A stretch of 64,000 nucleotides of DNA, from contig CAZUBK010000002.1 in assembly GCA_964618725.1 (NCBI GenBank), positions 131,992 through 195,991 on the forward strand, in the 5' to 3' direction. Source of the stretch: an uncultured Pseudomonadales bacterium (GTDB taxonomy: Bacteria; Patescibacteriota; Microgenomatia; UBA1400; Chazhemtobacteraceae). Positions 30,881 through 46,402 of this stretch are shown piece after piece. Made by a program: the position numbers and the translations under genes. Within the stretch, counting starts at the first letter, position 1. Each line of letters starts with the position of its first letter. The notes beneath the pieces are model-generated. The model was not told where the DNA came from, ran no database searches, and was given only the letters and a program-made list of their open reading frames with translations.

Positions 30881-32536
30881 TTACTGTGAGCCATTACCGG
30901 GATGGGTCTCGATCACTTCGTCGGTGGACTTGAGAATGGAGCGCCAGTTGCCGACCTTGGTAAGGAGTTTGCCAACAGTTTCTAGTTGGGGAATTTTGAG
31001 AAAGAAGCTTAGAGAAAAATAGACTAAGAGTCCAATGATTGAAGCAATAGAAGTAAGAAAAAGGAGAGGGAGGGTGTGGGTAGTGTCGAAGACAAATTGG
31101 TCGAGAAGGCGCATTGGACCCCAGAGAAAGACGCCGGTAAAGATGGTGGCGAGAATCATTTTAAGAGAGTCGAGATAGATGTAGAGACGACCTAATTGTT
31201 TTTGAAGAAGGGCAATGAGAAAAAAAACACTTAAAGTATTGGCGATACTGGTGCCGATGGCCAGACCTTGAATGCCGGTCTTAAAGACAACGGCGAGGAG
31301 ATAGCTTAAGGCGAGATGGATAATGACGGTGACAAGACTGATGAAGAAAGGGGTTTTGGTATTGTGAAGGGCATAAAAAGAGCGGACTAAAACGTGGGAA
31401 ATGGCTTGGGGGGCGATGGATAGGGTGAGGAGAGCAAGAACGCGGCTGGTCTCAAGAGTGGCTTCCCAAGGGAAATTACGTGAGCCAAAGGTGAGGCGAA
31501 CTATGGGAAGACGAAGGACTAAAAGCAGGGCGGTAGCCGGAAGAGAGAAGAAGAGAATTTGAAGCAGAGAGTGGCTAAGGGTCGTTTTGAATTGCTGATA
31601 GTCCTTGTCGGCAACTTGTGAAGAAAGAGTAGGGAAGGATGCCTGACCAAGAGAAATGCCAAAAAGACTAATCGGGAGGGAATAGAGCTGACGGGCAAAG
31701 TTAAAGACGGTTAGGGAGCCGGCGGAGAAAAGAGAGGCGACAAAGACGGCATTCCAGCGCTCAAGTTGGATGACGGCAAGGGCAGCAGTGCGGGGAATCA
31801 TAAGATGACGAATGGTCTTAACACCAATATGCCCAGGATCGAGAATGGGCTGATAACGAAAACCAAGGCGAATGCTAAGGGGGAGCTGGACAAGCATGTG
31901 AAGAATGCTGCCAATAATGACTCCAACCCCGGCTCCGTAAATGCCTAGAGTTGGAGTGAGAAAGATAATGCCAAGAATAATACCAAAGTTATAGAAGAGG
32001 GGAGCAATGGCGGGAATGAGAAAGCGTTGATGACTTTGAAGGATGCCGGTGAGGAAAGTGCTGACGGTAAAAAAGAGTTGACTAATGAGCATGACGCGCA
32101 TAAGGTTAGCCATCAACTGCGCTTCCCGTCCGGGAAAGTGAGAGATCGTCTGACTAACTGGTTTAGCGAAAATGAAGAGAAGGGTGATAATGACAGTTAA
32201 GAGAAGAAGAAGAGAGTTGAGGGTGGCGTTGACGAGGCGGTTGGCTTCATCGTTGCCCTTCTTTAGATATTCGCTGTAGACGGGGATGAAAGCGGCGGAA
32301 AGGGCACCAACGACAAGGAGCTGAAAGACTGAGTCGGGGATGACAAAGGCAGCGAAGTAGACGTCGAGGTCGGACTCGAGTCCGCCAAAGAAACGGGCGG
32401 CGAGAAGGCGGTTTCTGATTAAGCCAAGACCAGCAGAGAGAAGATAGGAGAAGGCAATAACAAAGGCAGCGGAGAGGATGCTGCTACTTTGGCGAGAGAG
32501 AATGGCTTGGGAGCGCTTGATGAAAGTTTTAACCAT
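30881..32536 (-). CDS. murJ: lipid II flippase MurJ/MviN
   Basis: 14-TM MOP-superfamily protein with MviN N-terminal motifs. 551 aa. Confidence 0.8.
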   Translation of the reverse strand: MVKTFIKRSQAILSRQSSSILSAAFVIAFSYLLSAGLGLIRNRLLAARFFGGLESDLDVYFAAFVIPDSVFQLLVVGALSAAFIPVYSEYLKKGNDEANRLVNATLNSLLLLLTVIITLLFIFAKPVSQTISHFPGREAQLMANLMRVMLISQLFFTVSTFLTGILQSHQRFLIPAIAPLFYNFGIILGIIFLTPTLGIYGAGVGVIIGSILHMLVQLPLSIRLGFRYQPILDPGHIGVKTIRHLMIPRTAALAVIQLERWNAVFVASLFSAGSLTVFNFARQLYSLPISLFGISLGQASFPTLSSQVADKDYQQFKTTLSHSLLQILFFSLPATALLLVLRLPIVRLTFGSRNFPWEATLETSRVLALLTLSIAPQAISHVLVRSFYALHNTKTPFFISLVTVIIHLALSYLLAVVFKTGIQGLAIGTSIANTLSVFFLIALLQKQLGRLYIYLDSLKMILATIFTGVFLWGPMRLLDQFVFDTTHTLPLLFLTSIASIIGLLVYFSLSFFLKIPQLETVGKLLTKVGNWRSILKSTDEVIETHPGNGSQ

Positions 32537-32599
32537 AAGTGAGTGAGTCTATTATGCCAGGATTGCAGCTTTGGGCACAAGCTGGTAAAATATATGTCT

Positions 32600-32911
32600 A
32601 TGCCGATACTAAAGCATGCAAAAAAGAAATTAATTGTTGACCAAAAGAGAGCAGAGCGAAATAAGGTCGTGAGAACCCGGGTTTCTTCGGCTGTCAAAAG
32701 GTTCAAACTGTCACTAAACAAAGAAAGTCTTGACCAGGCTTTTTCAGCCTTGGACAGAGCGGCTAAAAGCCACGTAATTCATGAGGGTAAAGCAAATAGA
32801 TTGAAATCGAGATTGAACAAGTTGCTGCCGAAAGAGGTGGCAAGTGTAGCAGAGAAAGTGGTGAAGACGACTAAAAAAGGGGTGAAAGTGCCAAAGAAGA
32901 TTTCTAAATAG
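32600..32911 (+). CDS. rpsT: 30S ribosomal protein S20 with K-rich C-terminal extension
   Basis: The ORF's internal Met gives MPILKHAKKKLIVDQKRAERNKV..., an S20 pattern. Confidence 0.75.
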   Translation: MPILKHAKKKLIVDQKRAERNKVVRTRVSSAVKRFKLSLNKESLDQAFSALDRAAKSHVIHEGKANRLKSRLNKLLPKEVASVAEKVVKTTKKGVKVPKKISK

Positions 32912-32961
32912 AGAATTGGTAGTGAGCCTGCGTTTCCACTATGACTTGATATAATTAGGGC

Positions 32962-33537
32962 ATGGCTGCCCAAGCGACATTTGCGAAAATAAATCTAGTT
33001 CCTCAGGACGAGTTTGAGAAAAGTTTAGTTGGCAAGGTGCTGCGGTGGACTCTGACCGCGGGAAAGTCAATTGTGGTAATCACTGAGTTCGTGGTTATTT
33101 TGGCTTTTCTATCACGTTTCAAGCTGGACCGAGATCTAAATGATTTGAACGAGGTGATTGAGCAAAAGACGTTGGTAGTAGAAAGTTATGCTGACACAGA
33201 GACACAGATGCGATTGCTTCAGACCAAGGCAGGAGTGGTTGGAATGATGAATAGAGAAGGGGTGGGAGTGGGGAAGAGATGGTTAGAGTTGGTGGAATTG
33301 ACACCCATAGACACTAGGTACAAAAACATAGAATTAGGTAAGAACCAGGTTGTATTAAAAGGAATTGCCGGATCAGAGGCGGGGTTTTCTCAACTATTAA
33401 GGTCGCTGAGTGAGCTAAATGATATTCAAAGCTTGGAGTCGGACGAGATTGAGTTTGATCCCGAGGAGGGTGGGGTTGTTTTTACGATTACGGCAAAATT
33501 AGCAAATGAAAAAGGACTTAAAGATGGCGACATTTAA
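32962..33537 (+). CDS. PilN-like type IV pilus assembly protein
   Basis: INLVPQ motif near the N-terminus, a single TM helix and a periplasmic-type coiled-coil/beta domain. Confidence 0.5.
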   Translation: MAAQATFAKINLVPQDEFEKSLVGKVLRWTLTAGKSIVVITEFVVILAFLSRFKLDRDLNDLNEVIEQKTLVVESYADTETQMRLLQTKAGVVGMMNREGVGVGKRWLELVELTPIDTRYKNIELGKNQVVLKGIAGSEAGFSQLLRSLSELNDIQSLESDEIEFDPEEGGVVFTITAKLANEKGLKDGDI

Positions 33538-34177
33538 AGCTTCGGGCTTGTATGAAGGTTACTTAAAGAATGTGCAGCGGATTTATGAACGCGAGCCAGT
33601 TCTCCAGGCCTCCTTACAAGTAATACTATCCATTTTTACGGTAGCTTTTTTTATTTTCTTTGCGATTAGACCAACGCTTTCTACAGTCTCGACCTTGGTG
33701 CGAAAAATTGATGATCAAAAACTGGTCAACGGTAAACTTGATAGCAAGATTCAACAACTGGCCATAGCCCAAGACAACCTGACAATCTATGGAGAGAGAC
33801 TCAATGATCAGTTGGATGAGGCCATTCCCAAACGACCGGATGTCGATAGATTGGCCAGACAAATCGAGGCAATCTCGATTGAGTCAGAAGCCTATATCAC
33901 TTCTTTAAATATTCAAGAGTCTCCTTTAGTCGGCGAGAAAACGACAATCATCAAAACCGCAGGTAAATCTGAGGGGGAACAATTTGTGGTTTTTAGTTTT
34001 GCTGCGGGGGGTAGCCAGGAACAAATAAGGAGTTTCATCAGCTTACTGGAGAAAATGGAGAGGGGGGTAATGATAACTCAATTATCGATAAAAGGGGCAG
34101 AGACATCACAGAAAGAAAATTTCACTTTGATGGCAGAAGGTAAGGCGACAATCTATTATTTACCGGAAAAGAAGTGA
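33524..34177 (+). CDS. PilO-like type IV pilus assembly protein
   Basis: Single TM helix, coiled coil and a C-terminal ferredoxin-like repeat. Immediately follows the PilN-like gene with a short overlap. Confidence 0.45.
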   Translation: MATFKASGLYEGYLKNVQRIYEREPVLQASLQVILSIFTVAFFIFFAIRPTLSTVSTLVRKIDDQKLVNGKLDSKIQQLAIAQDNLTIYGERLNDQLDEAIPKRPDVDRLARQIEAISIESEAYITSLNIQESPLVGEKTTIIKTAGKSEGEQFVVFSFAAGGSQEQIRSFISLLEKMERGVMITQLSIKGAETSQKENFTLMAEGKATIYYLPEKK

Positions 34178-34533
34178 AGAAAAAAACATCTGCTTCAATG
34201 AATGTTTTGGTCATTGGCCTGTTTACTCTATTGGCGGTAGGAAGTTGGGTAGTCTTTGATGTTTACAGAGCGCTGGTAAAGACGACTGTCCCCGAGGTGC
34301 TACAGGAACAGATTAAGTCGTTGGATCCAGAAATAGAGGCAACGATCATAAGTGACTTAAATAATAGAAGGCAATTCAGTGAAGAATATCTAGATACTTT
34401 GACGCCCCGTTTTTTGCTCGGGGAGGGAGAGACTAGTCCTGAACCAGAAGCGATACTGATTGAGACAGAACCCGAAGCGGTTCCCAAAGAGGAGACGGCA
34501 ACGCCTTCGGGTGAAATAGGGACAGTGCAATGA
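34174..34533 (+). CDS. small membrane-anchored protein with acidic E/P/T tail
   Basis: N-terminal TM helix. Start overlaps the PilO-like stop (ATGA). Confidence 0.4.
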   Translation: MKKKTSASMNVLVIGLFTLLAVGSWVVFDVYRALVKTTVPEVLQEQIKSLDPEIEATIISDLNNRRQFSEEYLDTLTPRFLLGEGETSPEPEAILIETEPEAVPKEETATPSGEIGTVQ

Positions 34534-34570
34534 GGTGTGAAATTATAGTAAAACTAAAGGTAGACCATTT

Positions 34571-36193
34571 ATGAAACTAGAATTGGGGGATTTAATGTCG
34601 AGGCGTATGCCGGCCATCTTAGGAGTGGTGTTGTTGCTTGGCGGTCTGATTGCGGCACTGTTTTTGGTGGGACAAAGCCAAGGTTTGCTCACTAGGGCCG
34701 GGCCAACTTCGACGCCAAGAAGTGTAAAGACAACTAATGTGAAGGAGGATTCATTTACCGTTTCGTGGATAAGTGACACAAAAGTAACAGGATTTATTAG
34801 ATATGGCGAAGAAAAGGGTAGCTTAAACAGGACTCTGAGTGACGACCGAGACCAGTTGTCGGGGAGCTCAGAAATGTACACAACTCATTACATAACAGTG
34901 AAGGGATTGAAACCAAACACTAAATATTACGTCAAGCTAGGATCGGGTTCAAAGACTTATGGCAGTAGTGGGACAGAAGAGCCATATGAAATAAAAACGG
35001 GAGGGGTGATAGCAGAGAAACCCGAAGTCGATGTCATTAATGGAAAAGTATTACTCTCTTCAGGGCAATCGGCCCCAGGAGTCATTGTTTATGTTGACAT
35101 CCCCGGAGGGGCACCCCTATCTTCCTTGACGAGGACAACAGGGGCCTGGACGCTGACATTATCACTAGTAAGAACGGTAGATCTGGCCGGGTATTTGGGA
35201 TACAACAAAGAAACAGAAGTGCTATCAATACTGGCACAGGGAGCGGATCTAGGAACGGCAACGGCAACCGTGACGACGAACAACGATACACCGGTGCCAG
35301 ATATCGCTTTAGGGCAGAACCTAGACTTACAAACAGGAGCAGATGTACAACTACAGGGGAAGACTGTTGAGATCCAGGATAATGGCTTGTCGGCAAATAG
35401 ACTGGAAGTAATCCCGGGGGAGATTGTGACGGTGATAAATAAAGACGGAGTACCACATTCGGTAACGGCAAAGGACAATTCATTCGACACTGGCTTAATC
35501 AGTGGTGGGGGCAATGCAACATTCACCTCGCCGCCGGCGGTGGGCGATTATCCATTTGAAGACTCAGCCAATCCGGGGGTAGAGTCACTGACTGGGGTCT
35601 TGACAGTCAAAGAGTCCGATTTAGTCGGGGCAGGACAGACAGGGGGTGGCTTTGGTGAGCTGGCAGACTTGAGTCAAGCGGCCGAGGCGACGCTTTCCGT
35701 TAAGCTACTGAATCCGGGAGTGAGTGGAGAAAGTATTGCTACGAGCTCTCCGGAGATACGAATTCAGGGGCCAACAGGAACAAAGGTAAAGATAACGGTA
35801 AATTCAACGCCGCAGACGACAGAAGTAACAATAGATTCAGATGGAGTGGTGGGCTGGACACCGCCGAGTCGGTTAGAGACGGGGCAACACACGGTAGTGG
35901 TGGAGTATACGGACACACAAGGAGTAGTACAACGAATTACTCGATTGTTTACCGTCTTGGCAGCTCAACCGTCGGGACAGGGGGGACTGCCCGCCTTCAC
36001 GGCAACGCCTTCGGCGACGCCGACGAGTACACCGAGTGCGTCGCCTTCGGGTACACCAAGGTCAACAATGCCGGCAACGGGGAGTGGGATACCGGAACCC
36101 GGGGTGATATCGCTGACGATTGCCATATTGGCGTTGGGAGTGGGCCTATTCTTTGGCGGAATAGCTTGGCAGATTTATTACTTGAAGATTTAA
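34571..36193 (+). CDS. cell-surface protein: N-terminal anchor, FN3-like, cupredoxin-like domain without Cu ligands, S/T/P linker, C-terminal sorting-signal-like TM
   Basis: FN3/purple-acid-phosphatase-N-like (FTVSWISD...YYVKLGSG). The plastocyanin-like segment (VINKDGVPHSVTAKDNSFDTGLI...GDYPFEDSANPG) lacks Cys/Met ligands. C-terminus is MPATGSGIPEPGVISLTIAILALGVG. Confidence 0.6.
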   Translation: MKLELGDLMSRRMPAILGVVLLLGGLIAALFLVGQSQGLLTRAGPTSTPRSVKTTNVKEDSFTVSWISDTKVTGFIRYGEEKGSLNRTLSDDRDQLSGSSEMYTTHYITVKGLKPNTKYYVKLGSGSKTYGSSGTEEPYEIKTGGVIAEKPEVDVINGKVLLSSGQSAPGVIVYVDIPGGAPLSSLTRTTGAWTLTLSLVRTVDLAGYLGYNKETEVLSILAQGADLGTATATVTTNNDTPVPDIALGQNLDLQTGADVQLQGKTVEIQDNGLSANRLEVIPGEIVTVINKDGVPHSVTAKDNSFDTGLISGGGNATFTSPPAVGDYPFEDSANPGVESLTGVLTVKESDLVGAGQTGGGFGELADLSQAAEATLSVKLLNPGVSGESIATSSPEIRIQGPTGTKVKITVNSTPQTTEVTIDSDGVVGWTPPSRLETGQHTVVVEYTDTQGVVQRITRLFTVLAAQPSGQGGLPAFTATPSATPTSTPSASPSGTPRSTMPATGSGIPEPGVISLTIAILALGVGLFFGGIAWQIYYLKI

Positions 36194-36206
36194 AAGTAGT
36201 AGTAGT

Positions 36207-37424
36207 ATGAAAGATATGGAGAGGAAGTTGTTTGGACGAACCAAGCCGTGGATGATGTTTGTAGGGGCAGGATTATTGGTGGCGGCTTTGGCGGTGGCGG
36301 GAGGGGTGGTGTATGTGAGTAGGCAGCTGGCGACAAAGAGTCAGGAGACGAGGTCGTTGGCAAAATCGGGATGTGACGAGACTTACAGAGTGCAGTGTCA
36401 AGAAAAAGGGTTGAAGTGTCGTGCTGACCTGAATGGTCTGAATTACTGCTCTGGATGTCTTGATGGATACTCTACCTGCAGTTCAGGTAAGTGCTGTAAG
36501 GATAGTGGAGGTGGAGGAGGGAGGGAATGCAAGATCACGAATTGTACTTCTTGTCACACTGCTGGTGGAAGTGAGGTGTGTGATGCTTGTAAATCAGGTT
36601 ATACATCGATGGGTGATCGTTGTCAGAATACTAGCGCTGGGGAATGCCAAGAGGGACAAAAACGATGCAATGAGATTAGTCCTGAGATATGCGAGGAACG
36701 TAAATGGGAGTTCTACGGTACTTATTCTACTTACACCAGCAACCAAGAATGTAGAGAGAAGTATTTGGGGCAGGGCGGGGGAGGTGGATCAACAACCTCA
36801 AGTGGAGGAGGAGGGGGTGGTGGATCAAGTTGTGAGAAGGGACCAGGTCCGTGTTCGGTCTCTTGTGAAAGCGGGGATTCGTTTGATGACAGGACGTGTT
36901 TGTCAACATTTGATTCTTGTGAGCAATGGGCAAAGGAAGCATGTGGAACCGTTGGTTCTGTCCCAAGGACTTTCGGCAATTATGGAGGTGACTCTCCTTC
37001 AGGTGGCGGGTCGACGTCAAGCGGTGGGGGCTACGTTCCGGAAGAGGTGTCAATACCAACGCCGACGCCGATTCAATACTGCATTAATGTCTATTTTTAT
37101 GTAAATCAGGGAGGGGCGTGGACGAAGACAAAAAAGGGCGACTTGGTAGACAGGATACGGATTGGAGATACTATTAGATTGGCGGTAAAACCGGTGGGGA
37201 AGATCACCAGATGGGACAAGGCACGGTTCTTTATCGATAATGATAAGACACTAAAAACAAAGAAGGTAGAGCCAGTAGAGACTGCCTTGGTTAATGAACA
37301 GGGCGAGTTCTACCTTGACTACACGATTCCTTCACCTATTGAGAGTACATCTGTTAGCAAGAAAGGGACGAGTATGAAGTTTGAGGTAAGGGCAGAATTA
37401 TATAGAAACCTAACTAAAAAATGA
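36207..37424 (+). CDS. membrane-anchored cysteine-rich (furin/EGF-like repeat) protein with Gly-rich linkers and conserved C-terminal beta domain
   Basis: N-terminal TM helix. About 30 Cys in CxxC...GY...C patterns, GGGGG linkers, and a C-terminal domain (IRLAVKPV...NEQGEFYLDYT) shared with the 37706 gene. Confidence 0.55.
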   Translation: MKDMERKLFGRTKPWMMFVGAGLLVAALAVAGGVVYVSRQLATKSQETRSLAKSGCDETYRVQCQEKGLKCRADLNGLNYCSGCLDGYSTCSSGKCCKDSGGGGGRECKITNCTSCHTAGGSEVCDACKSGYTSMGDRCQNTSAGECQEGQKRCNEISPEICEERKWEFYGTYSTYTSNQECREKYLGQGGGGGSTTSSGGGGGGGSSCEKGPGPCSVSCESGDSFDDRTCLSTFDSCEQWAKEACGTVGSVPRTFGNYGGDSPSGGGSTSSGGGYVPEEVSIPTPTPIQYCINVYFYVNQGGAWTKTKKGDLVDRIRIGDTIRLAVKPVGKITRWDKARFFIDNDKTLKTKKVEPVETALVNEQGEFYLDYTIPSPIESTSVSKKGTSMKFEVRAELYRNLTKK

Positions 37425-37633
37425 AAAATAAACTTAAAAAAGGACGATTAAAGATGATCTTGACCTCTTTTGGCCTGCTTCTGGTGGCTGGTGTGGTAAT
37501 TGCAGTGGCCCTAAGGGTGGCAGTACCGACATTGATTGCTCCAACAGCGCCAGAAAGTCAACCCGAGGCCGCGGAGGGCTGGAAACATTCGTCAGATTGT
37601 AACGTATCATTCTCAGTAAAATTATCAGAGTAA
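37421..37633 (+). CDS. small membrane protein; paralogous to N-terminus of 38718 gene (MKNK...TM...IAPTAPES)
   Basis: ATGA overlap with the upstream gene. Shares the anchor plus IAPTAPES(Q/K)P segment with the 38718-40184 protein. Confidence 0.4.
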   Translation: MKNKLKKGRLKMILTSFGLLLVAGVVIAVALRVAVPTLIAPTAPESQPEAAEGWKHSSDCNVSFSVKLSE

Positions 37634-37705
37634 TCAAACTGTTGACGTTTACAAATGAAATACCTATCATGAGATGTAGAGACCCGTTTTCGGGTTAGAA
37701 ATACG

Positions 37706-38710
37706 ATGGATCCAGCTGCCCAAGACAACCAACAAACAACAACACTTCCAAACGATGGTTTGGACGACCAAGTGAGACACGGTGATTTGCCGTGGACGGG
37801 TGCGACAGCTCAAGCACCAACAGTATCGACTCCTGGTATGGCTAGTTTGCCACCACTGCCCAAATTGCCTTCCTTACCGACAACACAGGTTCCCGTTCCT
37901 GATGTTTCTGTTCCCAACTCATTTGCGGATACTGGTCTACCTGGACCGCTGGCGGAACCCGAATCACCCCCACCGCCATTACCAGAAGTTGGTGGGCTGC
38001 AAATATCAACGACGACAATACCTGTAGCTCTACCTTCTATGCCTCAAGATGAAGCGGTGACTGGTTTGTCGTCAGTTTCTTCAGGAGGAGGGGCCGGGGA
38101 AGTGACAATGAAGAAAAAGGGGGGCAAGACTGGCCTGGTGGCAGGGATAGCGGCCTTGGTTTTGTTGGTTGGCGCGGCGACAGGAGGGACACTATATATT
38201 TCGGAGCAAACTAGGCAACAAAATGCAGATCTTCAATCGAGGGCATCCTTGGTGCCGGCTTGTCGGGACGGGAGAGATAATGACGGAGATGGGAAGATTG
38301 ACTGTTTGACAGGGGTGGCAGACCCGGGTTGTTTCCCTGATAACAACGGAGGCGGAGGAGCGTGTAATCCCGAAGATGAAAATGAAGTAAATCAAGTGGC
38401 AACTACTCCGACTCAAGAGGAGTTGCTAGCATGTACGGGGGTAGTTCTTTACTGGAAAAACAATACAACTTGGACGAAAGGGACGGCGGAGCAGGTGGCA
38501 ACGAATACGACGACGGGAGAAGCAATTAGATTGGCGGTCAAACCTGTGGATGGGACGGCCTCTGTGGCAAGATTCAGAGTTAACGATGGGGACTGGAGAG
38601 AGTCGACAACAAAGAATGAGCAAGGAGAGTTCTACGTTGAATATACACCGACAACCTTTGAAACATTTAATATAGAGGCACAGATGGGTGCATACGGATA
38701 CGAAGATTAA
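37706..38710 (+). CDS. Pro-rich N-terminal region, internal TM, one MopE-like Cys/Asp repeat, conserved C-terminal beta domain
   Basis: CRDGRDNDGDGKIDC...GCFPD...GGGGACNPED repeat. C-terminal domain IRLAVKPV...NEQGEFYVEYT is paralogous to that of the 36207 gene. Confidence 0.55.
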   Translation: MDPAAQDNQQTTTLPNDGLDDQVRHGDLPWTGATAQAPTVSTPGMASLPPLPKLPSLPTTQVPVPDVSVPNSFADTGLPGPLAEPESPPPPLPEVGGLQISTTTIPVALPSMPQDEAVTGLSSVSSGGGAGEVTMKKKGGKTGLVAGIAALVLLVGAATGGTLYISEQTRQQNADLQSRASLVPACRDGRDNDGDGKIDCLTGVADPGCFPDNNGGGGACNPEDENEVNQVATTPTQEELLACTGVVLYWKNNTTWTKGTAEQVATNTTTGEAIRLAVKPVDGTASVARFRVNDGDWRESTTKNEQGEFYVEYTPTTFETFNIEAQMGAYGYED

Positions 38711-38717
38711 AACTAAA

Positions 38718-40184
38718 ATGAAAAACAAGACTTTACTAGCGGTTATTCTATTTACCTTGGTGGCAGTGGGTGTGGTTTTGGGAATAGTTTTTGTACTACC
38801 AAGATTAACAACAACGGAGGAGTCGATTGCCCCGACGGCTCCTGAGAGTAAGCCAGCAGCATTTACTGAAGCAACACAAAGTGCAACGAGAGAACTGATT
38901 ATTTCTAAGATGTCAAATGAATGTACCTGGACGGGAGAGCAAAGGGATGGGTATGCGGCAGGTTATGCCACTTCTGAGGTGAGTTTTGGAAACTGTACGA
39001 TACTAGGTGGGAGAATAGAATCGGTCCCTCCGATTCCTTCGGGTTGGGTATATGATGACGTCTTGTATCTCTTGGTTGACAACAAGATATTCTCTGGCGG
39101 GGACAAGTCGTTGGCAGGTGCAGGGCTGGCTTTGGGTGATGCGTGGGACTGGACGAAAGTGGTGGGGACAAGACAGAGGAGTCGCCAAAATACGCAGGTT
39201 TGTTACGGCGGAGGTACCTGTGAAGCGCCGGGAACAAGAAATACTGCAGCCGGGAATCCCTCTGGAGCGATCTTGATGGATTTGAGTGCGGCGGTGTCTG
39301 ACTTGTTGGATTCAAGTCTGGATAGTCACACGATTACTGCCTTAGTAACCGGAGATAATAATCCCAGGACGGATTGTCGCATCAGAAATGATTTGAAAGT
39401 AACTCTGGAGCTATCCTGTACCGAGCTAATTCCCGAGTGTCGAGATGGGATAGATAATGACGGAGACAGTAAGATTGATTGTACTGTAGGAGCAGAGGAT
39501 CCTGGCTGTTTCCCAGATGGAAGAGGCGGTGGAGGAGCGTGTAATCCAGAAGATGACTCAGAACTAGATGTCTATCTTCCCGAGTGTAGTGACGGAATAG
39601 ATAATGATAACGACGGTAAGATTGACTGTACCGCGGGAGCTGCCGATCCGGGCTGTTTCCCAGATGGAAGAGGCGGTGGAGGAGCGTGTAATCCAGAAGA
39701 TGACTCAGAACTAGATGTCTATCTTCCCGAGTGTAGTGACGGAATAGATAATGATAACGACGGTAAGATTGACTGTACCGCGGGAGCTGCCGATCCGGGC
39801 TGTTTCCCAGATGGTCATGGAGGAGGTGGCGTTTGCAACGGCCAAGACGATGATGAAGCAGATGCGACACTACAGTGGGGGAATGTGTGTGAAGAGAATT
39901 TGACTTTGGTAGGTGTGACTCCGACAGCCACACCAACACCGACTGCGATCCCTACTCCGACATCTGGCCCAACAGCGACGCCGACGCCAACCAGACCGGC
40001 GGGTGCGCCAACTGCGACCCCTACTCCGACAGTACCAGGTGCGCCAACAAATACACCGACTCCAAGGGCAACAGCGACGCCGACGCCAGTACAGCTTCCT
40101 GAGGCAGGAATAGGGCTACCGACACTGGGTGCTTTAGGTGGAGGAGTAGTGATGATATTACTCGGAGTACTATTAGCGCTTTAG
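38718..40184 (+). CDS. surface protein with three 49-aa MopE-like (CxDGxDNDxDxKIDC) repeats, P/T-rich linker and C-terminal hydrophobic anchor
   Basis: Start placed at MKNKTLL (the second Met avoids overlap). Repeats are ECxDGIDNDxDxKIDCTxGAxDPGCFPDGxGGGGACNPEDDSELDVYLP x3, followed by TPTATPTPT linker and LPEAGIGLPTLGALGGGVVMILLGVLLAL. Confidence 0.6.
   Translation: MKNKTLLAVILFTLVAVGVVLGIVFVLPRLTTTEESIAPTAPESKPAAFTEATQSATRELIISKMSNECTWTGEQRDGYAAGYATSEVSFGNCTILGGRIESVPPIPSGWVYDDVLYLLVDNKIFSGGDKSLAGAGLALGDAWDWTKVVGTRQRSRQNTQVCYGGGTCEAPGTRNTAAGNPSGAILMDLSAAVSDLLDSSLDSHTITALVTGDNNPRTDCRIRNDLKVTLELSCTELIPECRDGIDNDGDSKIDCTVGAEDPGCFPDGRGGGGACNPEDDSELDVYLPECSDGIDNDNDGKIDCTAGAADPGCFPDGRGGGGACNPEDDSELDVYLPECSDGIDNDNDGKIDCTAGAADPGCFPDGHGGGGVCNGQDDDEADATLQWGNVCEENLTLVGVTPTATPTPTAIPTPTSGPTATPTPTRPAGAPTATPTPTVPGAPTNTPTPRATATPTPVQLPEAGIGLPTLGALGGGVVMILLGVLLAL
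39431..39871 (+). repeat. three tandem 147-bp coding repeats; copies 2 and 3 identical over about 150 bp (39514-39814)
   Basis: Direct reading shows ...gatgtctatcttcccgagtgtagtgacggaatagataatgataacgacggtaagattgactgtaccgcgggagctgccgatccgggctgtttcccagatgg... appears twice with period 147. Confidence 0.8.
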
Positions 40185-40204
40185 GCTTGATGTAGAATGC
40201 AGTA

Positions 40205-41227
40205 GTGCTTAGTCGAAGGAATCTTAGATTATCGGTGGAGAGATACTTATCTGGAATATTGGTTTATTCTTTGGCTTTTTTCCTTTACACACACCATAAC
40301 TACTACATTAATTTGCTGCGCGAAGAGACGGTTGTTGTACTGAGGGTTTTATATATTAGTTATGTTGTTGGTGGATTTCCTTTTCTCTTGTTTAGCGAGA
40401 AGGAGGACAAACATAAGCCTCAAGAACTAATAAAGGCAGTCAGGGATCTTTTGAGAGTTTTTGTTTCCTTTTCTGTTTCTTTTCTACCAGGAAAAACAAG
40501 GAAGAAATTTAGGCTTGATTCAGAGTACAAGAAGATTGTTTTGTTCACACTAGTAAAAGTCTTTTACGTCCCCTTGATGTTGAATTTCCTTTTTGGCAAT
40601 TGGCAGGGAGTGCTTAGATATTGGGAGAAGTGGAATTCGATGGGCTTTAGTTTTGAATTCAGGGAGGATTATCTCTTTTTGTTATCGAGCATTTTTGTTT
40701 TAGACACACTAGTATTTTGCTTTGGATACCTGGTTGAGTTCAAGGCACTTAAGAATGTTGTTAAATCTGTTGAACCTACCTTGTTGGGCTGGGTGGTGGC
40801 ATTGGCCAGCTATCCGCCATTTAGTGGTGTTACTGGGCAGTATTTGAGTTGGTATTCGAGTGATCGTTTCTTCTTTAGCAATGAGTTGGTGGACATTGCG
40901 GCCAAGGTGGCTGTTCTTCTATTACTTTGCCTATATCTTTGGGCGAGTTTCTCACTGGGACCAAAGGCATCTAATTTGACTAACAGAGGGATCGTTACCA
41001 GTGGGGCATACCGAATTGTAAGACACCCTGCCTATATTGGGAAGGTAAGTGCCTGGTGGATCATGGCTCTACCGACTTTTTCGGTTGGTGCAGTACTGTC
41101 ACTAGCTGGTTGGACAATAGTCTATTATTTAAGAGCGATAACTGAGGAGAGACATTTGATCAATGATGGCGATTATAGAAAGTATGTTAAGAAAACTCGG
41201 TTTAGATTTGTGCCGGGGATTATGTGA
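40205..41227 (+). CDS. membrane protein with C-terminal ICMT/PEMT-family methyltransferase domain
   Basis: C-terminal RIVRHPAYIG...ITEERHL motif of isoprenylcysteine carboxyl / phospholipid methyltransferases. Multiple N-terminal TM helices. Confidence 0.55.
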   Translation: MLSRRNLRLSVERYLSGILVYSLAFFLYTHHNYYINLLREETVVVLRVLYISYVVGGFPFLLFSEKEDKHKPQELIKAVRDLLRVFVSFSVSFLPGKTRKKFRLDSEYKKIVLFTLVKVFYVPLMLNFLFGNWQGVLRYWEKWNSMGFSFEFREDYLFLLSSIFVLDTLVFCFGYLVEFKALKNVVKSVEPTLLGWVVALASYPPFSGVTGQYLSWYSSDRFFFSNELVDIAAKVAVLLLLCLYLWASFSLGPKASNLTNRGIVTSGAYRIVRHPAYIGKVSAWWIMALPTFSVGAVLSLAGWTIVYYLRAITEERHLINDGDYRKYVKKTRFRFVPGIM

Positions 41228-42492
41228 TTAAGATGAAAAAAGTAGCAATAGTCGGAGCTGGGTTTACCGGGCTAGCAGCGGGAGTTGAGCTGATAGATCA
41301 AGGGGTGTTAGTAGTTATCTTCGAAGCAAATAAAGAACCGGGTGGACTGGCAACGGGATTTAGAAGTAAAGGATGGAAGTGGAGATTAGAAAAGTTCTAT
41401 CATCATATTTTTGCCAACGATCGAGAAGTCATTGACTTGGCGAAGAAAGTGGGAGCCGAGGTAATTTTCGAAACCCCGGAAACGAGCGTATCAAAAGGCG
41501 GGCGATTGAGTCAGCTGGACACACCACTGAGTCTATTACTTAATCCTGAGTTGTCGCTTTGGGGGAAGATAAGAATGGCTGTAGGATTGGGATACTTAAA
41601 AGTACTAAACATGAGGCAGGGAATGAGTTTAGAAAAAGAGAGGGTAACGGTGAGACTACCTGAACTAGTGGGCCAAGAGGGATATAAAAAGATCTGGAAG
41701 CCGCTACTATCTGCCAAGTTTGGCAAACATGTAGATCAGGTAAACATGACTTGGTTTTGGGCAAGAATTGTAAAGAGAACAAAGGCTTTGGGATACTTTG
41801 AAGGAGGGTTCCAAGAGTTGGCGGAGAAATGTGTGAAATACATAGTAGAAAAGGGAGGAGAAGTAAGAATGGGAGAAAGAGTGGAGAAAATAGGGAGAGG
41901 GGAAAAAAGGGGATGGGTAGTTAACGGGATGGAATTTGATCAGGTAGTTCTAACAGTACCAGCGTCATTGGTAGACAAGATTATAGGAAGAGAGGTGGCC
42001 TGGCCGAAGGTAGATTATTTGTGGGGTCAGACACTGATACTGGAATTAGAGAAGCCACTAATGGAATCCTACTGGTTAAACGTTTTGGAGAAGGACTGGC
42101 CATTTCTTGTGGTGGTAGAACACACGAATTTTATGGACAAGAAGAACTATGGCAAGAAACGAGTGGTTTATGTAGGGAATTATCTAGAAGAAGGCGACAA
42201 GAGATTGATGATGTCAGAGAAGGAGTTGATAAATATGTACTTCCCTTATCTTAAGAAAATAAACTCAGGGTTCAGTAGAAAGCAGATCAGGCGAGTCTGG
42301 AAGTTTCAGACTCCATTTGCTCAGCCGGTATTTCCGGTTAACTATAGTAAGAAGATACCTCCGTGTAGAACTAAAGCAAAAGGATTGTATGTGGCGAATA
42401 TGAACATGGTCTACCCATGGGATAGAGGGACCAATTACGCGGTGGAGTTTGGGAGAAAAGCAGCAGGAGAGATATTGTTGGACAGAAGGTAA
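41224..42492 (+). CDS. FAD/NAD(P)-binding oxidoreductase (amine-oxidase / phytoene-desaturase-like)
   Basis: N-terminal Rossmann GxGxxG (VAIVGAGFTGLAAG) plus EANKEPGG. 422 aa. ATGA overlap with the upstream methyltransferase. Confidence 0.7.
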   Translation: MIKMKKVAIVGAGFTGLAAGVELIDQGVLVVIFEANKEPGGLATGFRSKGWKWRLEKFYHHIFANDREVIDLAKKVGAEVIFETPETSVSKGGRLSQLDTPLSLLLNPELSLWGKIRMAVGLGYLKVLNMRQGMSLEKERVTVRLPELVGQEGYKKIWKPLLSAKFGKHVDQVNMTWFWARIVKRTKALGYFEGGFQELAEKCVKYIVEKGGEVRMGERVEKIGRGEKRGWVVNGMEFDQVVLTVPASLVDKIIGREVAWPKVDYLWGQTLILELEKPLMESYWLNVLEKDWPFLVVVEHTNFMDKKNYGKKRVVYVGNYLEEGDKRLMMSEKELINMYFPYLKKINSGFSRKQIRRVWKFQTPFAQPVFPVNYSKKIPPCRTKAKGLYVANMNMVYPWDRGTNYAVEFGRKAAGEILLDRR

Positions 42493-42501
42493 AATACTGG
42501 T

Positions 42502-44496
42502 GTGAGTTCGCAAGATCTAACCCTAATACTCCATTCGTATTTACTCGGGCTGGTTTTACAGTTGATAACTTGGCCAGTCGTGTTTAGAGTCTTTCAGAAG
42601 AACCTGGTTGACAAGGGTTGGATGGTGGGAAGGATTTTGGGTTGGCTAGTAATTAGTCTAGTGGCTTGGTGGTTGGGCTTTATGGGAGTGCCAATCAAGT
42701 TAACAATCTGGTTGATGGCAGGAGTGGTGCTGGTGGTGGGGGGATATATGGCTATCAGGGAGAGGATGAGTCTGAGGACGGGACTAAGAGAGGTGTGGGT
42801 GTTTGTTCTCACCGAAGAACTATTATTTCTGCTGGGTTTCTTGGGGCTTAGTTTTATCAGAAGTTTTAACCCCGATATCCTAGATTTGGAGAAATTTATG
42901 GATGCGGGGCTTGTTACTACCTATCTTCGATCGGTGAGTTTGCCGGCCGAAGATATGTGGTTGGCAGGGGAAAAGATAAACTACTATACCTTTGGTCACT
43001 TTATGGGAGCGGTGCAGACGATAATTTGGGGAATTGACTTAGCTTATTCTTACAACTTACTGCTTGGATTGCTGGCGGGATTGACATTGAGTTTGAGTTT
43101 CAGTGTTGTAGTCAATTTAGCAGAGGTTGGGGGAAGGACAATAAAAAAGGAGAAGATGATTTTGGGTGGAATAGTGGGGAGTTTACTAGTGGCAATTGGG
43201 GGAAACTCTCAGACAAGTTGGTTTTTTTTGAAAAACAAAACATTTGAGGGCTATTGGTATGCGGATGCAACAAGATTTATTGAGAACACGATACATGAGT
43301 TTCCGAGTTATAGTTTTGTGGTATCTGACTTACACGCTCATCTGTGGGACCTACCGATTGTGTTGTTATTTCTGCTGGTGCTTTTAATTTGGCAGAAGGA
43401 GATGCAAGAAGAAAAAAAAGAACGGTGGAGTGCTGTAATTGGCGGTTTACTGGGAGTGATGACGATGACCAATACTTGGGACCTGCTTATCTACGGACTG
43501 CTCACCATGATCTTGGGAGGACTACTATTATTTAGGGGGGTAAGTTTAGTGAAACTTTTCAGGGCAGGAATATTGGCAGGGGTCGCATTGCTGGCGGTGA
43601 GTAGTTTATGGTGGATGAATTTTGTGAACATAGGGGAAGGGTGGCGGGTGGTAACGAAGCGCTCACCTTTGTGGCAATTAGTAGTTCTGTGGATGGGACA
43701 TATAGCCTTGAGCGTTGTTGCTTGGTGCTTCAACATTAGGAGACAGAGCAAAAAAGGATATGAATTAAAGAGTTTGATAATAGCGGCAATGATTTTAACG
43801 GCTTTTATGTTGTTGCTTATTCCTGAGTTGGTATATATGAAGGATATTTATCCTAATCATCCTCGGGCAAATACAATGTTCAAGCTAACTTATCAAGCGT
43901 TTGTCTTGATGAGTCTGGTGGCTGGTTGGCTAGTGGTGGAGATACAGGCGGTTAAGTTTAGATGGTGGAAGATTCCCTTAGTCGCAGTTATTGTGGCGGT
44001 CACGGCGTCTTTGCTCGTGTTCCCGTACTTTGGTTACCGAGGTTTCTATGGCGAATTCAAGAAGCTAAAAGGTCTTGATGGATTGAGTTGGTTACAGATG
44101 GAGTATCCCGATGACTACACGGCGATTCTTTGGCTTAAAGAGAACGAGAGGGGTAGACCAGTGATAGTTGAGGCTATAGGGGAAAGCTATACCACTTTCG
44201 GCAGAGTGTCGGTGTTTACGGGGATGCCGACGATACTGGGATGGAGAGTACACGAATGGCTATGGAGGGGTGGATTTGAGATACCGGCTCAAAGAACGGA
44301 AGAGGTGAAGACGATATATGAGAAACCAGAGACAAAAGAGGCAAAAATACTACTGAGTAAATACCGAGTCAAGTACATTTTTGTGGGGAACAAGGAAAGA
44401 GAAGCCTACCAAGAGATTGATGAGGCGGGGCTGAGAAAATTTGGTGAGATAGTCTTTGAGAGAGGGAAGACGCTGATTATCCGTAGATTTGAATAA
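42502..44496 (+). CDS. large polytopic membrane protein, DUF2298/'YYY'-type putative GT-C glycosyltransferase
   Basis: More than 14 predicted TM helices. A C-terminal soluble region ends ...KYRVKYIFVGNKERE, as in the DUF2298 family. Confidence 0.45.
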   Translation: MSSQDLTLILHSYLLGLVLQLITWPVVFRVFQKNLVDKGWMVGRILGWLVISLVAWWLGFMGVPIKLTIWLMAGVVLVVGGYMAIRERMSLRTGLREVWVFVLTEELLFLLGFLGLSFIRSFNPDILDLEKFMDAGLVTTYLRSVSLPAEDMWLAGEKINYYTFGHFMGAVQTIIWGIDLAYSYNLLLGLLAGLTLSLSFSVVVNLAEVGGRTIKKEKMILGGIVGSLLVAIGGNSQTSWFFLKNKTFEGYWYADATRFIENTIHEFPSYSFVVSDLHAHLWDLPIVLLFLLVLLIWQKEMQEEKKERWSAVIGGLLGVMTMTNTWDLLIYGLLTMILGGLLLFRGVSLVKLFRAGILAGVALLAVSSLWWMNFVNIGEGWRVVTKRSPLWQLVVLWMGHIALSVVAWCFNIRRQSKKGYELKSLIIAAMILTAFMLLLIPELVYMKDIYPNHPRANTMFKLTYQAFVLMSLVAGWLVVEIQAVKFRWWKIPLVAVIVAVTASLLVFPYFGYRGFYGEFKKLKGLDGLSWLQMEYPDDYTAILWLKENERGRPVIVEAIGESYTTFGRVSVFTGMPTILGWRVHEWLWRGGFEIPAQRTEEVKTIYEKPETKEAKILLSKYRVKYIFVGNKEREAYQEIDEAGLRKFGEIVFERGKTLIIRRFE

Positions 44497-45088
44497 GCTG
44501 TTGGTGAAGTTTTTCAAAATCCACTAAGTTTCTCTTTTCATACGTAGCAGCCACTTGTGGAATTTCCTCGCGAGCGAGATCTGCCCATCTTTTGGCAATT
44601 AATGAATCCTGATAAGGATCTTCTCTGCGCAGTAGATATTCTATGTAGGGATACCAATATTTGTCGAAGAGTTCTTCAACCATTGGGGCGTGAATTAATA
44701 GAGGGTGAGGAAAGGCAAAATTCCTTTGAGAGATAACTTCTGCATAGACCTTAGCGGCTTTTTGAGGAATACCATACAGCTTCCCCCTTATCAGGTGAGA
44801 TCGTTGATCTTCAAGTAGTTCGTACTTGAAATTTAAATCCAGGTTTTTGACATCTCTGGAAACGTGGATGGTATTGTTGAATCTTTGGGAGACCCTGAAT
44901 TTTAATTGTGCCTTTTTCAACCATGCTGAGAAGAGTAATTGCTTAGATGGGTCTGTTCCCAAATCAAAATCGAGATCGATCGTTGCCATCGGTTTTAGAC
45001 CACGATACACAAGCCAAAGTTGAATCTTGCCCACTTCAATTGGAAGATTATCTAGAGAACTAGCTAATTGTTTTTGTTGTTTGGTCAT
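44477..45088 (-). CDS. hypothetical protein (203 aa)
   Basis: Clean ORF. No motif recognised. Confidence 0.4.
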   Translation of the reverse strand: MTKQQKQLASSLDNLPIEVGKIQLWLVYRGLKPMATIDLDFDLGTDPSKQLLFSAWLKKAQLKFRVSQRFNNTIHVSRDVKNLDLNFKYELLEDQRSHLIRGKLYGIPQKAAKVYAEVISQRNFAFPHPLLIHAPMVEELFDKYWYPYIEYLLRREDPYQDSLIAKRWADLAREEIPQVAATYEKRNLVDFEKLHQQLIQIYG

Positions 45089-45107
45089 AAATTTATTGTC
45101 TCAAAAA

Positions 45108-45132
45108 GAGAAGGGCATCATGAGATGCCCAA
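45108..45132 (-). terminator. intrinsic terminator after small Cys-peptide gene
   Basis: gggcatc-tcat-gatgccc hairpin followed by TTCTCTTTTTG on the minus strand. Confidence 0.5.
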
Positions 45133-45143
45133 AAGAAGAGAAG

Positions 45144-45260
45144 CTACCGTGGTTCATAACCACAAGAATGGCATTTCTTGGCTGATTCCGAGTTGCTGGC
45201 ACTACAGCGAATACAGACCCAAGAACAAATAATGATAACTAGACGAGACAGAGTGTTCAT
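45144..45260 (-). CDS. 38-aa cysteine-rich zinc-ribbon-like peptide (MNTLSRLVIIICSWVCIRCSASNSESAKKCHSCGYEPR), not in ORF track
   Basis: Hand translation. AAGGAG SD 6 nt before the ATG, a consensus promoter upstream and an intrinsic terminator downstream. CxxC-N10-CxxC plus an N-terminal hydrophobic segment. Confidence 0.5.
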   Translation of the reverse strand: MNTLSRLVIIICSWVCIRCSASNSESAKKCHSCGYEPR

Positions 45261-45296
45261 TTAGTTCTCCTTAAATATGAGAGTAAGAATACCGAT

Positions 45297-45325
45297 AGTA
45301 TAAATTACTACTAATAATACGTCAA
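45297..45325 (-). promoter_or_regulatory. sigma70-type promoter TTGACG-17-TATACT for the small Cys-peptide gene
   Basis: -35 at 45320-45325 and -10 at 45297-45302 (minus strand), with a 17-nt spacer. It sits directly after the LCP stop codon. Confidence 0.45.
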
Positions 45326-46402
45326 TTAGCGGGCAAGTTCGTTTTGAATATATTGTTTTAGGGCTTCCCAGTTGTTGTCACGAGCAATGAGGACGTATTG
45401 GCCAAGATAGGGGGTTTTGTTTTTGGGATTCTCAAGGACACCTAGTTCGCCTTTTTCTTTGTCTCCAGTGGTGAGAGGGACGTTTTTGATACTGAGATCT
45501 TTGGCCAGAACGAGACGGGTGAAGGCAGCATATTCGTTATTGGTAATGTCGGTGTCGATATATTGACGATAGAGATTGAAGAGGTCAGCTAGTCTTTGTG
45601 GACTAAGGAGGGTCTTGCTGGAAAGAAGCTTGTCTTTGAAGGCGAGGATAACCTTTTGCTGGCGGGCGGAGCGGGCAAAATCGGTGCCCTCTTCACCTTC
45701 TGCCATTCTGGAACGAACAAATCTGAGGGCAGTTTCTCCATCCATGTGATTTGGACCGGCGTCAAAGTGGAGGAATTGATAACGATCAGATTCGGGGAGG
45801 GCATCTTCTTTGCCGGGAACGGGATACTTGAAGTCATCAAAAGTACGCTCAATTTGGACGTCGATGCCACCAACGAGATCAATAGCTTGCTTGAAGCCTT
45901 CGAAATCGAGGACAAAGGCATAGTGAATGGGAAGACCGATGATCTCGGAGACTGACGACTTGGCAAGAATGAGACCGCCCCCGGCGGGCTTTTTTTGTTT
46001 GCCGTAATAGTAGGCGGTATTGATTTTGGCTTTCATTGAGTCAACCCAAATGTCGCGGGGGAGGGAGAGAATAGAGACCTTCTTGGTAGGATGGTGGAAG
46101 GAGATCACAATGATTGAATCAGTTAAGTCGGCACCTATATGGCCCTCACCACCCCGACCGAGAAGGAGGAGATTGGTGCGGTCGCTGCTGCTGGCAAGAG
46201 TGGAGAGTGGGTCTTTAGCAAAAGAAATGAGAGTTGAGGGGCCGACAAGGAGCTTGCGGAAGAAAAAAGTCAGAGGGGACTTAAAGCTATAGATGAGAGT
46301 AAAGACGAGAAGGACGGAAAGAGCAATTAATCCTGGTTTGAGTAGGTGGGTATAACGGGAGAGGTAACGGCGTAATTTAGAGAAGTCAAAAAAGTCAGTC
46401 AC
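45326..46402 (-). CDS. LytR-CpsA-Psr (LCP) family cell-wall glycopolymer transferase
   Basis: N-terminal TM. LCP core (LLLGRGGEGHIGADLTDSIIVIS...LSLPRDIWV). Confidence 0.8.
   Translation of the reverse strand: MTDFFDFSKLRRYLSRYTHLLKPGLIALSVLLVFTLIYSFKSPLTFFFRKLLVGPSTLISFAKDPLSTLASSSDRTNLLLLGRGGEGHIGADLTDSIIVISFHHPTKKVSILSLPRDIWVDSMKAKINTAYYYGKQKKPAGGGLILAKSSVSEIIGLPIHYAFVLDFEGFKQAIDLVGGIDVQIERTFDDFKYPVPGKEDALPESDRYQFLHFDAGPNHMDGETALRFVRSRMAEGEEGTDFARSARQQKVILAFKDKLLSSKTLLSPQRLADLFNLYRQYIDTDITNNEYAAFTRLVLAKDLSIKNVPLTTGDKEKGELGVLENPKNKTPYLGQYVLIARDNNWEALKQYIQNELAR

Follow-up and report, generated by a model that had tools for sequence, protein, structure and literature searches.

A recent 147-bp in-frame tandem duplication in the gene for a predicted cysteine-rich envelope protein of an uncultured Patescibacteria bacterium

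Introduction

The alpha C and Rib proteins of Streptococcus agalactiae, which are size-variable surface proteins, contain about nine or more identical repeats, each of about 246 bp, and isolated variants differ in copy number. In the contingency loci of Haemophilus, Neisseria and Campylobacter, the repeated units are 1-7 nt long, and changes in their number shift the reading frame or the promoter spacing, and so switch expression at a high rate. Here, we describe a repeat-containing gene located at 38718-40184 on the plus strand of a 64,000-nt stretch of contig CAZUBK010000002.1 (assembly GCA_964618725.1), which is a chromosomal stretch of a bacterium of the Patescibacteria, or candidate phyla radiation (CPR). 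We refer to this whole stretch as the window, and all positions are given within it. The first-pass annotation of this DNA had reported a perfect 147-bp tandem duplication inside the gene, and had classed the region as a hotspot for both misassembly and phase variation.

This locus resembles alpha C and Rib in having tandem repeats that are in frame and identical at the nucleotide level, in a protein with a C-terminal sorting-type signal that is predicted to be wall associated. It differs from them in that only two units are identical, that no variant was seen, and that the repeat fold is unrelated. The likeness to simple-sequence contingency loci is that repetitive DNA, changeable by slippage, is present in a gene for a putative surface structure, although a 147-nt in-frame unit cannot shift the reading frame. 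By analogy, the size-variable tandem-repeat surface proteins of Gram-positive bacteria therefore appear to be closer to this locus than the contingency loci are. A further comparison is offered by Candidatus Peribacter riflensis, also a member of the CPR, whose exported Cys-rich proteins have been proposed to function in attachment, and where strain differences are mainly indels in the large extracellular proteins (PMC4736985). These proteins are far larger (1,655 aa on average) and come from another CPR lineage, and the link to the locus under study is a repeat shared with metagenome-assembled genomes (MAGs) of Peribacteria. As we show below, the locus encodes a protein with repeats of the NCBIfam family NF033662, and contains an ordinary tandem duplication that is real and of a known type.

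Results and Discussion

A perfect tandem duplication with a hybrid middle copy

Our analysis confirmed the presence of the perfect 147-bp tandem duplication. Tandem Repeats Finder (TRF) identified a period of 147 at 39430-39814, with 2.6 copies, 92% matches and zero indels, and a base-by-base comparison at an offset of 147 gave 164 unbroken identities (39504-39667 = 39651-39814), a run that is beyond chance and which demonstrates that the duplication is real. A repeat search placed four copies, all on the plus strand, three of which are in tandem: copy 1 at 39430..39576, copy 2 at 39577..39723, and copy 3 at 39724..39870, with boundaries taken from TRF, the offset-147 identity profile and pairwise comparison. 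The fourth is a single, diverged copy in the neighbouring gene, 1,177 nt upstream (38253..38399), and shares 64-68% nucleotide identity with the three tandem copies; this copy had also been recognized in the first-pass annotation. The unit of 147 nt corresponds to 49 codons and is in frame, each unit retains four Cys residues (the translation of copy 1 is PECRDGIDNDGDSKIDCTVGAEDPGCFPDGRGGGGACNPEDDSELDVYL), and the gene at 38718-40184 is intact despite the duplication.

The relationship between the three copies differs from that described originally, where copies 2 and 3 were considered identical over about 150 nt and copy 1 diverged. Our comparison demonstrated that the middle copy is a hybrid of the other two, matching copy 3 exactly over its first 91 nt and copy 1 over its last 73 nt. 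Identities over whole copies are 88.4% between copies 1 and 2, 80.3% between copies 2 and 3, and 68.7% between copies 1 and 3. The two outer copies are the old ones. If copy 1 is written as A1A2 and copy 3 as C1C2, then the order of the array is A1A2 / C1A2 / C1C2. The perfect unit is found at 39504-39650 and again at 39651-39797 (147/147), and is phased 74 nt later than the copies given in the earlier annotation. The full stretch showing perfect periodicity is located at 39504..39814 of the plus strand, and consists of 311 nt (147 × 2 + 17 nt), made up of the duplicated segment and a 17-nt stretch of microhomology.

Two other candidate features were rejected. A 20-nt similarity at 31315-31334, inside murJ, was judged to be a chance match, and an antisense open reading frame (ORF) of 185 codons (39382-39939, minus strand) is unsupported as a gene, and is most likely a stop-free shadow of repetitive, GC-rich coding sequence.

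Origin and age of the duplication

The longest identical run shared by copies 1 and 3 is the 17-nt sequence GGCTGTTTCCCAGATGG, located at 39504..39520 in copy 1 and at 39798-39814 in copy 3, and also present at 39651-39667. This run coincides exactly with the point where the hybrid copy switches from copy-3 sequence to copy-1 sequence, making it the likely site of misalignment or crossover. A single misalignment at this microhomology would produce both the hybrid middle copy and a perfect run of 147 + 17 nt. The explanation that we favor, and in which we have high confidence, is that the ancestral gene contained two old, diverged modules, the present copies 1 and 3 (69% identical), and that a single misalignment took place between them where they share their longest identical run, through unequal sister-chromatid exchange or through slippage during replication. 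This event would have duplicated 147 bp in frame, and would have generated a middle module with a 5′ part derived from copy 3 and a 3′ part derived from copy 1. The result would be one extra intact module in the stalk of a predicted envelope protein, probably making this stalk longer or of higher valency.

Between copies 1 and 3, there are differences at 46 of 147 nt, amounting to 17 synonymous and 13 non-synonymous codon differences (Jukes-Cantor distance 0.40), whereas the duplicated 147-nt pair shows 0 differences in 147, i.e., the unit would have gathered zero substitutions since the event. This absence of any difference in 147 nt, compared to 31% between the old copies, shows the in-frame duplication to be recent, as had been proposed in the first-pass annotation; on these counts, it would be younger than about 5% of the divergence between copies 1 and 3, with the 95% bound set at about 3/147.

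The same arrangement could be produced without the gain of a unit if the ancestor already contained three copies, and gene conversion (a form of concerted evolution) overwrote the 5′ part of the middle copy with copy-3 sequence and the 3′ part with copy-1 sequence. In favor of this, the closest full-length homologue, P0002, does contain three repeats, with the same QWGNVC junction and anchor after them, and repeats tend to group within proteins. However, conversion would require two tracts from different donors to abut exactly within the 17-nt stretch and to leave no trace of the old middle copy, when a single misalignment yields the identical product in one step. In addition, P0002 shares just 40% identity with the protein under study, has a different head domain, and is encoded at a different locus, so it is not a positional orthologue. 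The three repeats of P0002 share 61-67% DNA identity, and their identical runs do not exceed 13 nt; the perfect copy in our locus is therefore lineage specific and recent. We consider gene conversion very unlikely, and prefer a single duplication from a two-copy ancestor. A third candidate, that the repeats are the target of a diversity-generating retroelement, was rejected; no reverse transcriptase is present among the ORFs scanned, and the differences between copies are not adenine specific.

Reads, assembly and copy number

An independent Logan assembly of SRR12113420 contains two contigs that match the window with 0 mismatches: L001, which covers 31784-39533, and L085, which covers 39785-46702. 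Both of these contigs end 30 nt inside the edges of the periodic stretch. We computed the position of the right-hand break beforehand from the left-hand one (39815 - 30 = 39785), and the start of L085 agreed to the base. Positions 39533 and 39785 are the edges set by the last and first 31-mers that hold a unique base, and the 30-nt overhang is consistent with the k=31 of the Logan assemblies. This is how a k=31 de Bruijn graph is broken by a 147-nt repeat loop. A two-copy allele, where the longest shared run is 17 nt, is not expected to cause a branch in such a graph, and the breaks at 39533 and 39785 therefore demonstrate that the junction from copy 3 to copy 1 is present in the reads.

These contigs do not fix the number of copies, since the 147-nt loop is identical for three, four, or more. 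Furthermore, two-copy and three-copy alleles share all k-mers, and a mixture of these alleles would be invisible in contigs. The NCBI contig, of 290,644 bp, traverses the array once and shows three copies. The description of this region as an assembly hotspot is thus borne out by the k=31 breaks at both edges, and by a loop that conceals the true copy number.

It is unlikely, in our assessment, that the assembled copy number is wrong, either through the collapse of at least four units by the short-read assembler or, much less likely, because the middle copy is an artefact. Collapse is made conceivable by the length of the exactly periodic stretch, since 311 nt likely exceeds the short-read length, by the k=31 graph breaking at both edges with the number of turns round the 147-nt loop unfixed, and by high-identity arrays in other MAGs that abut contig ends (L007 at the end of its contig, and L013 at the start). 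There is no positive evidence for collapse, though, and the NCBI contig passes through the array with one turn, as paired reads can support. An artefactual middle copy is contradicted by the breaks at 39533 and 39785, which require hybrid-junction k-mers in the reads, and by the 17 nt that copies 1 and 3 share at most, which is below any usual k.

The main value of a single duplication from a two-copy ancestor is practical: it offers a base-resolved case where two copies would have become three through a 17-nt microhomology, and shows how an event of this kind fragments k-mer assemblies at predictable positions and masks the true copy number in MAGs. Arrays of the same repeat with 95-98% identity between units occur at L007 6785-7265, L013 1-584 and L009 2117-2608. 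The L007, L013 and L009 arrays are from MAGs of Peribacteraceae, Peribacteria and an archaeon, with periods of 243, 249 and 225 nt. Two of these three most identical arrays (L007 and L013) touch a contig end, so that the assembly problem recurs there.

The acidic repeat module

The repeats match the NCBIfam model NF033662 (acidic double-disulfide repeat) over three stretches, scoring 53.8 bits against a cutoff of 41 (E 1.2e-14); the single copy in the upstream gene scores 22.8 bits, below this cutoff. They contain the core of the family, CxDGxDNDxDGxxDC...DPGC, with its invariant Cys and Asp residues, and differ in the unit, which is 49 aa long, contains four Cys and carries a FPDG-GGGG-C-NPxDDxE extension, compared to the common unit of 34-38 aa (periods of 102-114 nt) in other phyla. 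Repeats of the NF033662 type are also found in Peribacteria/Peregrinibacteria, Saccharibacteria, Myxococcota, Bdellovibrionota and DPANN archaea. An alignment of 41 four-Cys units showed that C3, C17, C26, C37, D5, D8, N9, D10, D12, D16 and D23 are invariant, and the 147 residues of the three repeats include 40 Asp+Glu compared to 6 Lys+Arg. The family is known as a sequence model alone. A literature search on "double-disulfide repeat" found no paper, Pfam gave no match to the repeat even at E<=10 (TSP_3 included), and the sole match in a PDB sequence search was a spurious one to a de novo protein (E 0.19). No Rfam family matched in the window.

The motif Dx[DN]xDG binds Ca2+ in EF-hands and in thrombospondin type 3 repeats (PMC3123361; PDB 1ux6). 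Copies 2 and 3 contain DNDNDG, which fits this motif and is followed by KID, and they resemble thrombospondin type 3 repeats in being short, Asp-rich and bracketed by predicted disulfides; the differences are the lack of any match to Pfam TSP_3 or PDB noted above, and the sequence of copy 1, which reads DNDGDS and is missing the final Gly. These features suggest that the modules are probably stabilised both by disulfides and by Ca2+ bound at the acidic Dx[DN]xDG-like loop, and that the repeats may serve as the modules of a stalk. AlphaFold2 models gave a predicted local distance difference test (pLDDT) value of 48 for the full protein (17-row alignment) and 59.6 for a single unit (41-row alignment).

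Of the 19 Cys residues of the protein, the head domain accounts for 6 and the repeats for 12, and the remaining one (C391) belongs to the conserved QWGNVC junction that follows the last repeat. This odd number means that one Cys would be unpaired, intermolecular, or bonded to another protein.

Architecture of the repeat protein

The coding sequence at 38718..40184 starts with ATG and encodes 488 aa, with the ORF also opening at a GTG at 38688. Its product is 100% identical to the database protein P0001 (488 aa), which is encoded on the NCBI contig of 290,644 bp and is a singleton cluster. A hydrophobic segment is present at the N-terminus (aa 5-27, 38730..38798), and is either a signal-anchor or a signal peptide; AlphaFold2 predicts a helix at residues 2-31 with a pLDDT of 78-88. 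This is followed by the conserved motif IAPTAPESKP (38826-38855) and by a head domain with six Cys (aa 45-238, 38850..39431), which sequence comparison showed to be rare: it has no Pfam match, and a search of 1.84 billion representative proteins returned just 13 at E<=1e-3, with 37% identity for the best. Some relatives of the head domain (P0176-P0178) are without the CPR-type leader and anchor, and in these proteins it forms the C-terminal domain.

Downstream of the repeats, a Thr/Pro-rich linker (aa 401-457, 39918..40088) that contains short, imperfect direct repeats leads to the motif LPEAG and a Gly-rich, hydrophobic tail of 24 residues ending in LLAL (40095..40181). All of these features are encoded on the plus strand. 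As in LPXTG substrates (TIGR01167), an LPxxG motif and a hydrophobic segment are located at the extreme C-terminus, after a Thr/Pro linker of the wall-spanning type, but position 4 is Ala instead of Thr, and the tail after LPEAG contains no Lys or Arg. TIGR01167 does not match the repeat protein, and the homologue P0011 reaches 14.3 bits, short of the 15.9-bit cutoff. No sortase was found among the window ORFs scanned, and a literature search combining Patescibacteria, sortase and LPXTG returned nothing relevant. A scan for promoters and terminators gave counts at background level. Overall, the leader, repeats, Thr/Pro linker, and LPEAG with its hydrophobic C-terminus predict a cell-envelope or surface protein, in agreement with the first-pass annotation of this gene as encoding a surface protein.

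Several points weigh against a two-copy ancestor, a single misalignment, and an added stalk module at the cell surface, and should be considered together. We infer the misalignment from its product alone, and the surface location, the disulfide and Ca2+ chemistry, the role as a stalk and any future instability of the array are likewise inferred. The three repeats of P0002 are compatible with an ancestor that had three copies, and the loop behind the copy number in the assembled contig is the same for three, four, or more. The DNDGDS of copy 1 breaks the strict Ca2+ motif, and pLDDT values of 48 and 59.6 are uninformative, so that the disulfide and Ca2+ roles are putative. Finally, LPEAG falls below the LPXTG model, the basic tail is absent, the window contains no sortase, and the surface location is based on sequence.

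Relatives with shared ends and shuffled modules

Many relatives of the repeat protein share its two ends and differ in what lies between them. The leader motif, [VI]AP[TN][AV]P[ES]S[KR]P, occurs at the same position in relatives that have other head domains, and 12 relatives have the C-terminus LP[EDNK]AG...LLAL. A further relative has LPETG there, an indication that LPxAG represents a variant sortase-type signal. Relatives with the same leader and anchor contain unrelated heads and 0, 1, 2 or 3 acidic repeats, and relatives of the head domain join it to other stalk modules. The proteins with shared ends, in addition to the one encoded in the window, are P0002, P0011, P0016-P0018, P0022, P0029, P0050 and P0173-P0175. 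In this set, a transmembrane segment precedes the leader motif at the N-terminus, and the C-terminus is Gly-rich and hydrophobic and lacks a basic tail. The pairing of this leader with this C-terminus is not covered by any NCBIfam model, and looks like a set of lineage-specific sorting signals. In locus L086, from a metagenome relative, the gene after that for P0016 (which has the leader and anchor and one acidic repeat) is located at 1527-2984, and by eye appears to encode a large multi-pass membrane protein of the protein-mannosyltransferase type.

We compared 80 loci containing the repeat, from many phyla. Tandem arrays are common in these loci, with most showing 60-85% identity between units and a few showing 95-98%, and units group by protein and not by position. 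Judged from these sequences, the gain and loss of units is recurrent over evolutionary time. Counts of 0-3 between lineages, together with recent duplications in other repeat genes, are indicative of evolutionary turnover, and not of a demonstrated high-frequency switch. The locus in the window is one further example in favor of the view that the Cys-rich envelope proteins of CPR bacteria diversify by the gain, loss and shuffling of modules.

Size variation rather than phase variation

The first-pass annotation had proposed a classic contingency mechanism, i.e., phase variation, and our findings do not support this. TRF detected no simple-sequence tract within the gene, the array shows a single duplication event, and the gain or loss of a 49-codon unit keeps the reading frame, so that on/off switching would not result. 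The hallmark of a contingency locus, a hypermutable tract that alters expression, is therefore lacking in a 147-nt in-frame unit. What the gene does contain is the feature that characterizes size-variable surface proteins, at least two tandem units that are in frame and identical at the nucleotide level (147/147, extended to 164 nt). A perfect direct repeat of 164 nt is sufficient for slippage or RecA-dependent exchange. The new repeat could thus recombine or slip, and on mechanistic grounds a return to two copies or an expansion to four is plausible.

Whether this already occurs often is a separate question. A genuine size-variation locus, where the perfect repeat expands and contracts frequently, would give alleles with 2, 3, 4, or more modules, and the length or antigenicity of the stalk would be under selection from a host, phage or predator. 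Such systems act on perfect direct repeats like the 164-nt one in this gene for a predicted surface protein, and the 0-3 repeats in related proteins, the grouping of units within proteins that repeated turnover predicts, the 95-98% identical arrays of other repeat genes (L007, L009 and L013), and the indels that mainly distinguish Peribacteria strains in their large extracellular proteins (PMC4736985) are all in keeping with it. In addition, a mixture of two- and three-copy alleles would not show in contigs, since these share all k-mers. Set against this, there is a single visible event with two identical units, no simple-sequence tract, and an in-frame unit that allows no on/off switching; no second allele was found in the collections searched, and the protein is a singleton cluster. 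Furthermore, the closest homologue, P0002, shows no recent event, and most arrays of the wider family are 60-85% identical, and hence old. On balance, frequent size variation at this locus is doubtful. We regard as more doubtful still the extended proposal that the stalk is truly length variable in the population, with slippage between the perfect units giving rise to the variants and the assembly having merged the extra copies, that the reach of the head is tuned in this way, e.g., toward a host cell in an episymbiotic lifestyle, and that the leader and C-terminus belong to a lineage-specific sorting pathway. Should the copy number prove to be polymorphic within the population, this would suggest that the length of an attachment stalk is under selection in an uncultured organism.

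Organism and genomic neighbourhood

The window contains the housekeeping genes alaS, ftsK, RNase J, PNPase, infB, nusA, dnaJ, dnaK, lepA, tpiA, uvrD, addA-like and metG, in addition to the envelope genes murJ, PilN/PilO-like, an fn3/Big_13 protein, LCP, FemAB, polysaccharide deacetylase and DUF2298. This envelope-related context favors the prediction that the repeat protein belongs to the cell envelope. The best non-self matches of LepA are 79% identical, and the named ones are about 55% identical and are listed as "Patescibacteria group bacterium". We found no sequence from the same species in the protein, genome and metagenome collections searched. No match was obtained when metagenomes were scanned with a degenerate DNA pattern for the D-A-T-x-QWGNVC junction, and the two metagenome loci recovered by alignment to the C-terminal anchor both belong to other species.

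The gene immediately upstream (37706-38710, plus strand) encodes a protein of 334 aa, P0019, and contains the single diverged repeat copy at 38253-38399. In L083, the locus with the 79% LepA relative, the slot between the fn3/Big_13 and PEMT-like genes is occupied by a single gene of 589 aa, whose product shares the N-terminus (DDQVRHGDLPW) and C-terminal domain of the 334-aa protein but is without the acidic repeat; an orthologue of the repeat gene is absent from this L083 slot. These gene contents identify the interval from fn3/Big_13 to the PEMT-like gene as a variable slot for predicted surface proteins. The slot in the window (36207-40184) contains three Cys-rich envelope genes (405, 334 and 488 aa), compared to the one in L083 (2875-4644).

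A C-terminal domain of about 90 residues (IRLAVKPV...ARF.VNDG...NEQGEFY.EYT) is common to the 405-aa and 334-aa proteins, with 31% identity (E 2e-10). This domain, which has no Pfam match, is located at 37030-37421 and 38390-38707, at the C-termini of P0172 and P0006, and at L083 2875-3140, and the proteins elsewhere that share it bear the head domain or acidic repeats. A second LPXTG-like C-terminus is present in the cluster: the protein encoded at 34571-36193, with fn3, purple-acid-phosphatase-N, Big_13 and cupredoxin-like domains, ends in a Ser/Thr/Pro linker, MPATG, and a hydrophobic segment, and its gene is directly downstream of the PilN- and PilO-like genes (32962-34177). A DUF2298 membrane protein is encoded at 42502-44496, two genes downstream of the repeat gene. 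O-glycosylation of the Thr/Pro linkers is conceivable.

Up to ~32.5 kb, most genes are encoded by the minus strand, and from 32.9 to 44.5 kb the plus strand predominates. GC skew, (G-C)/(G+C), does not track the coding strand, and is positive in all 2-kb bins of 1-64000 (0.11-0.38).

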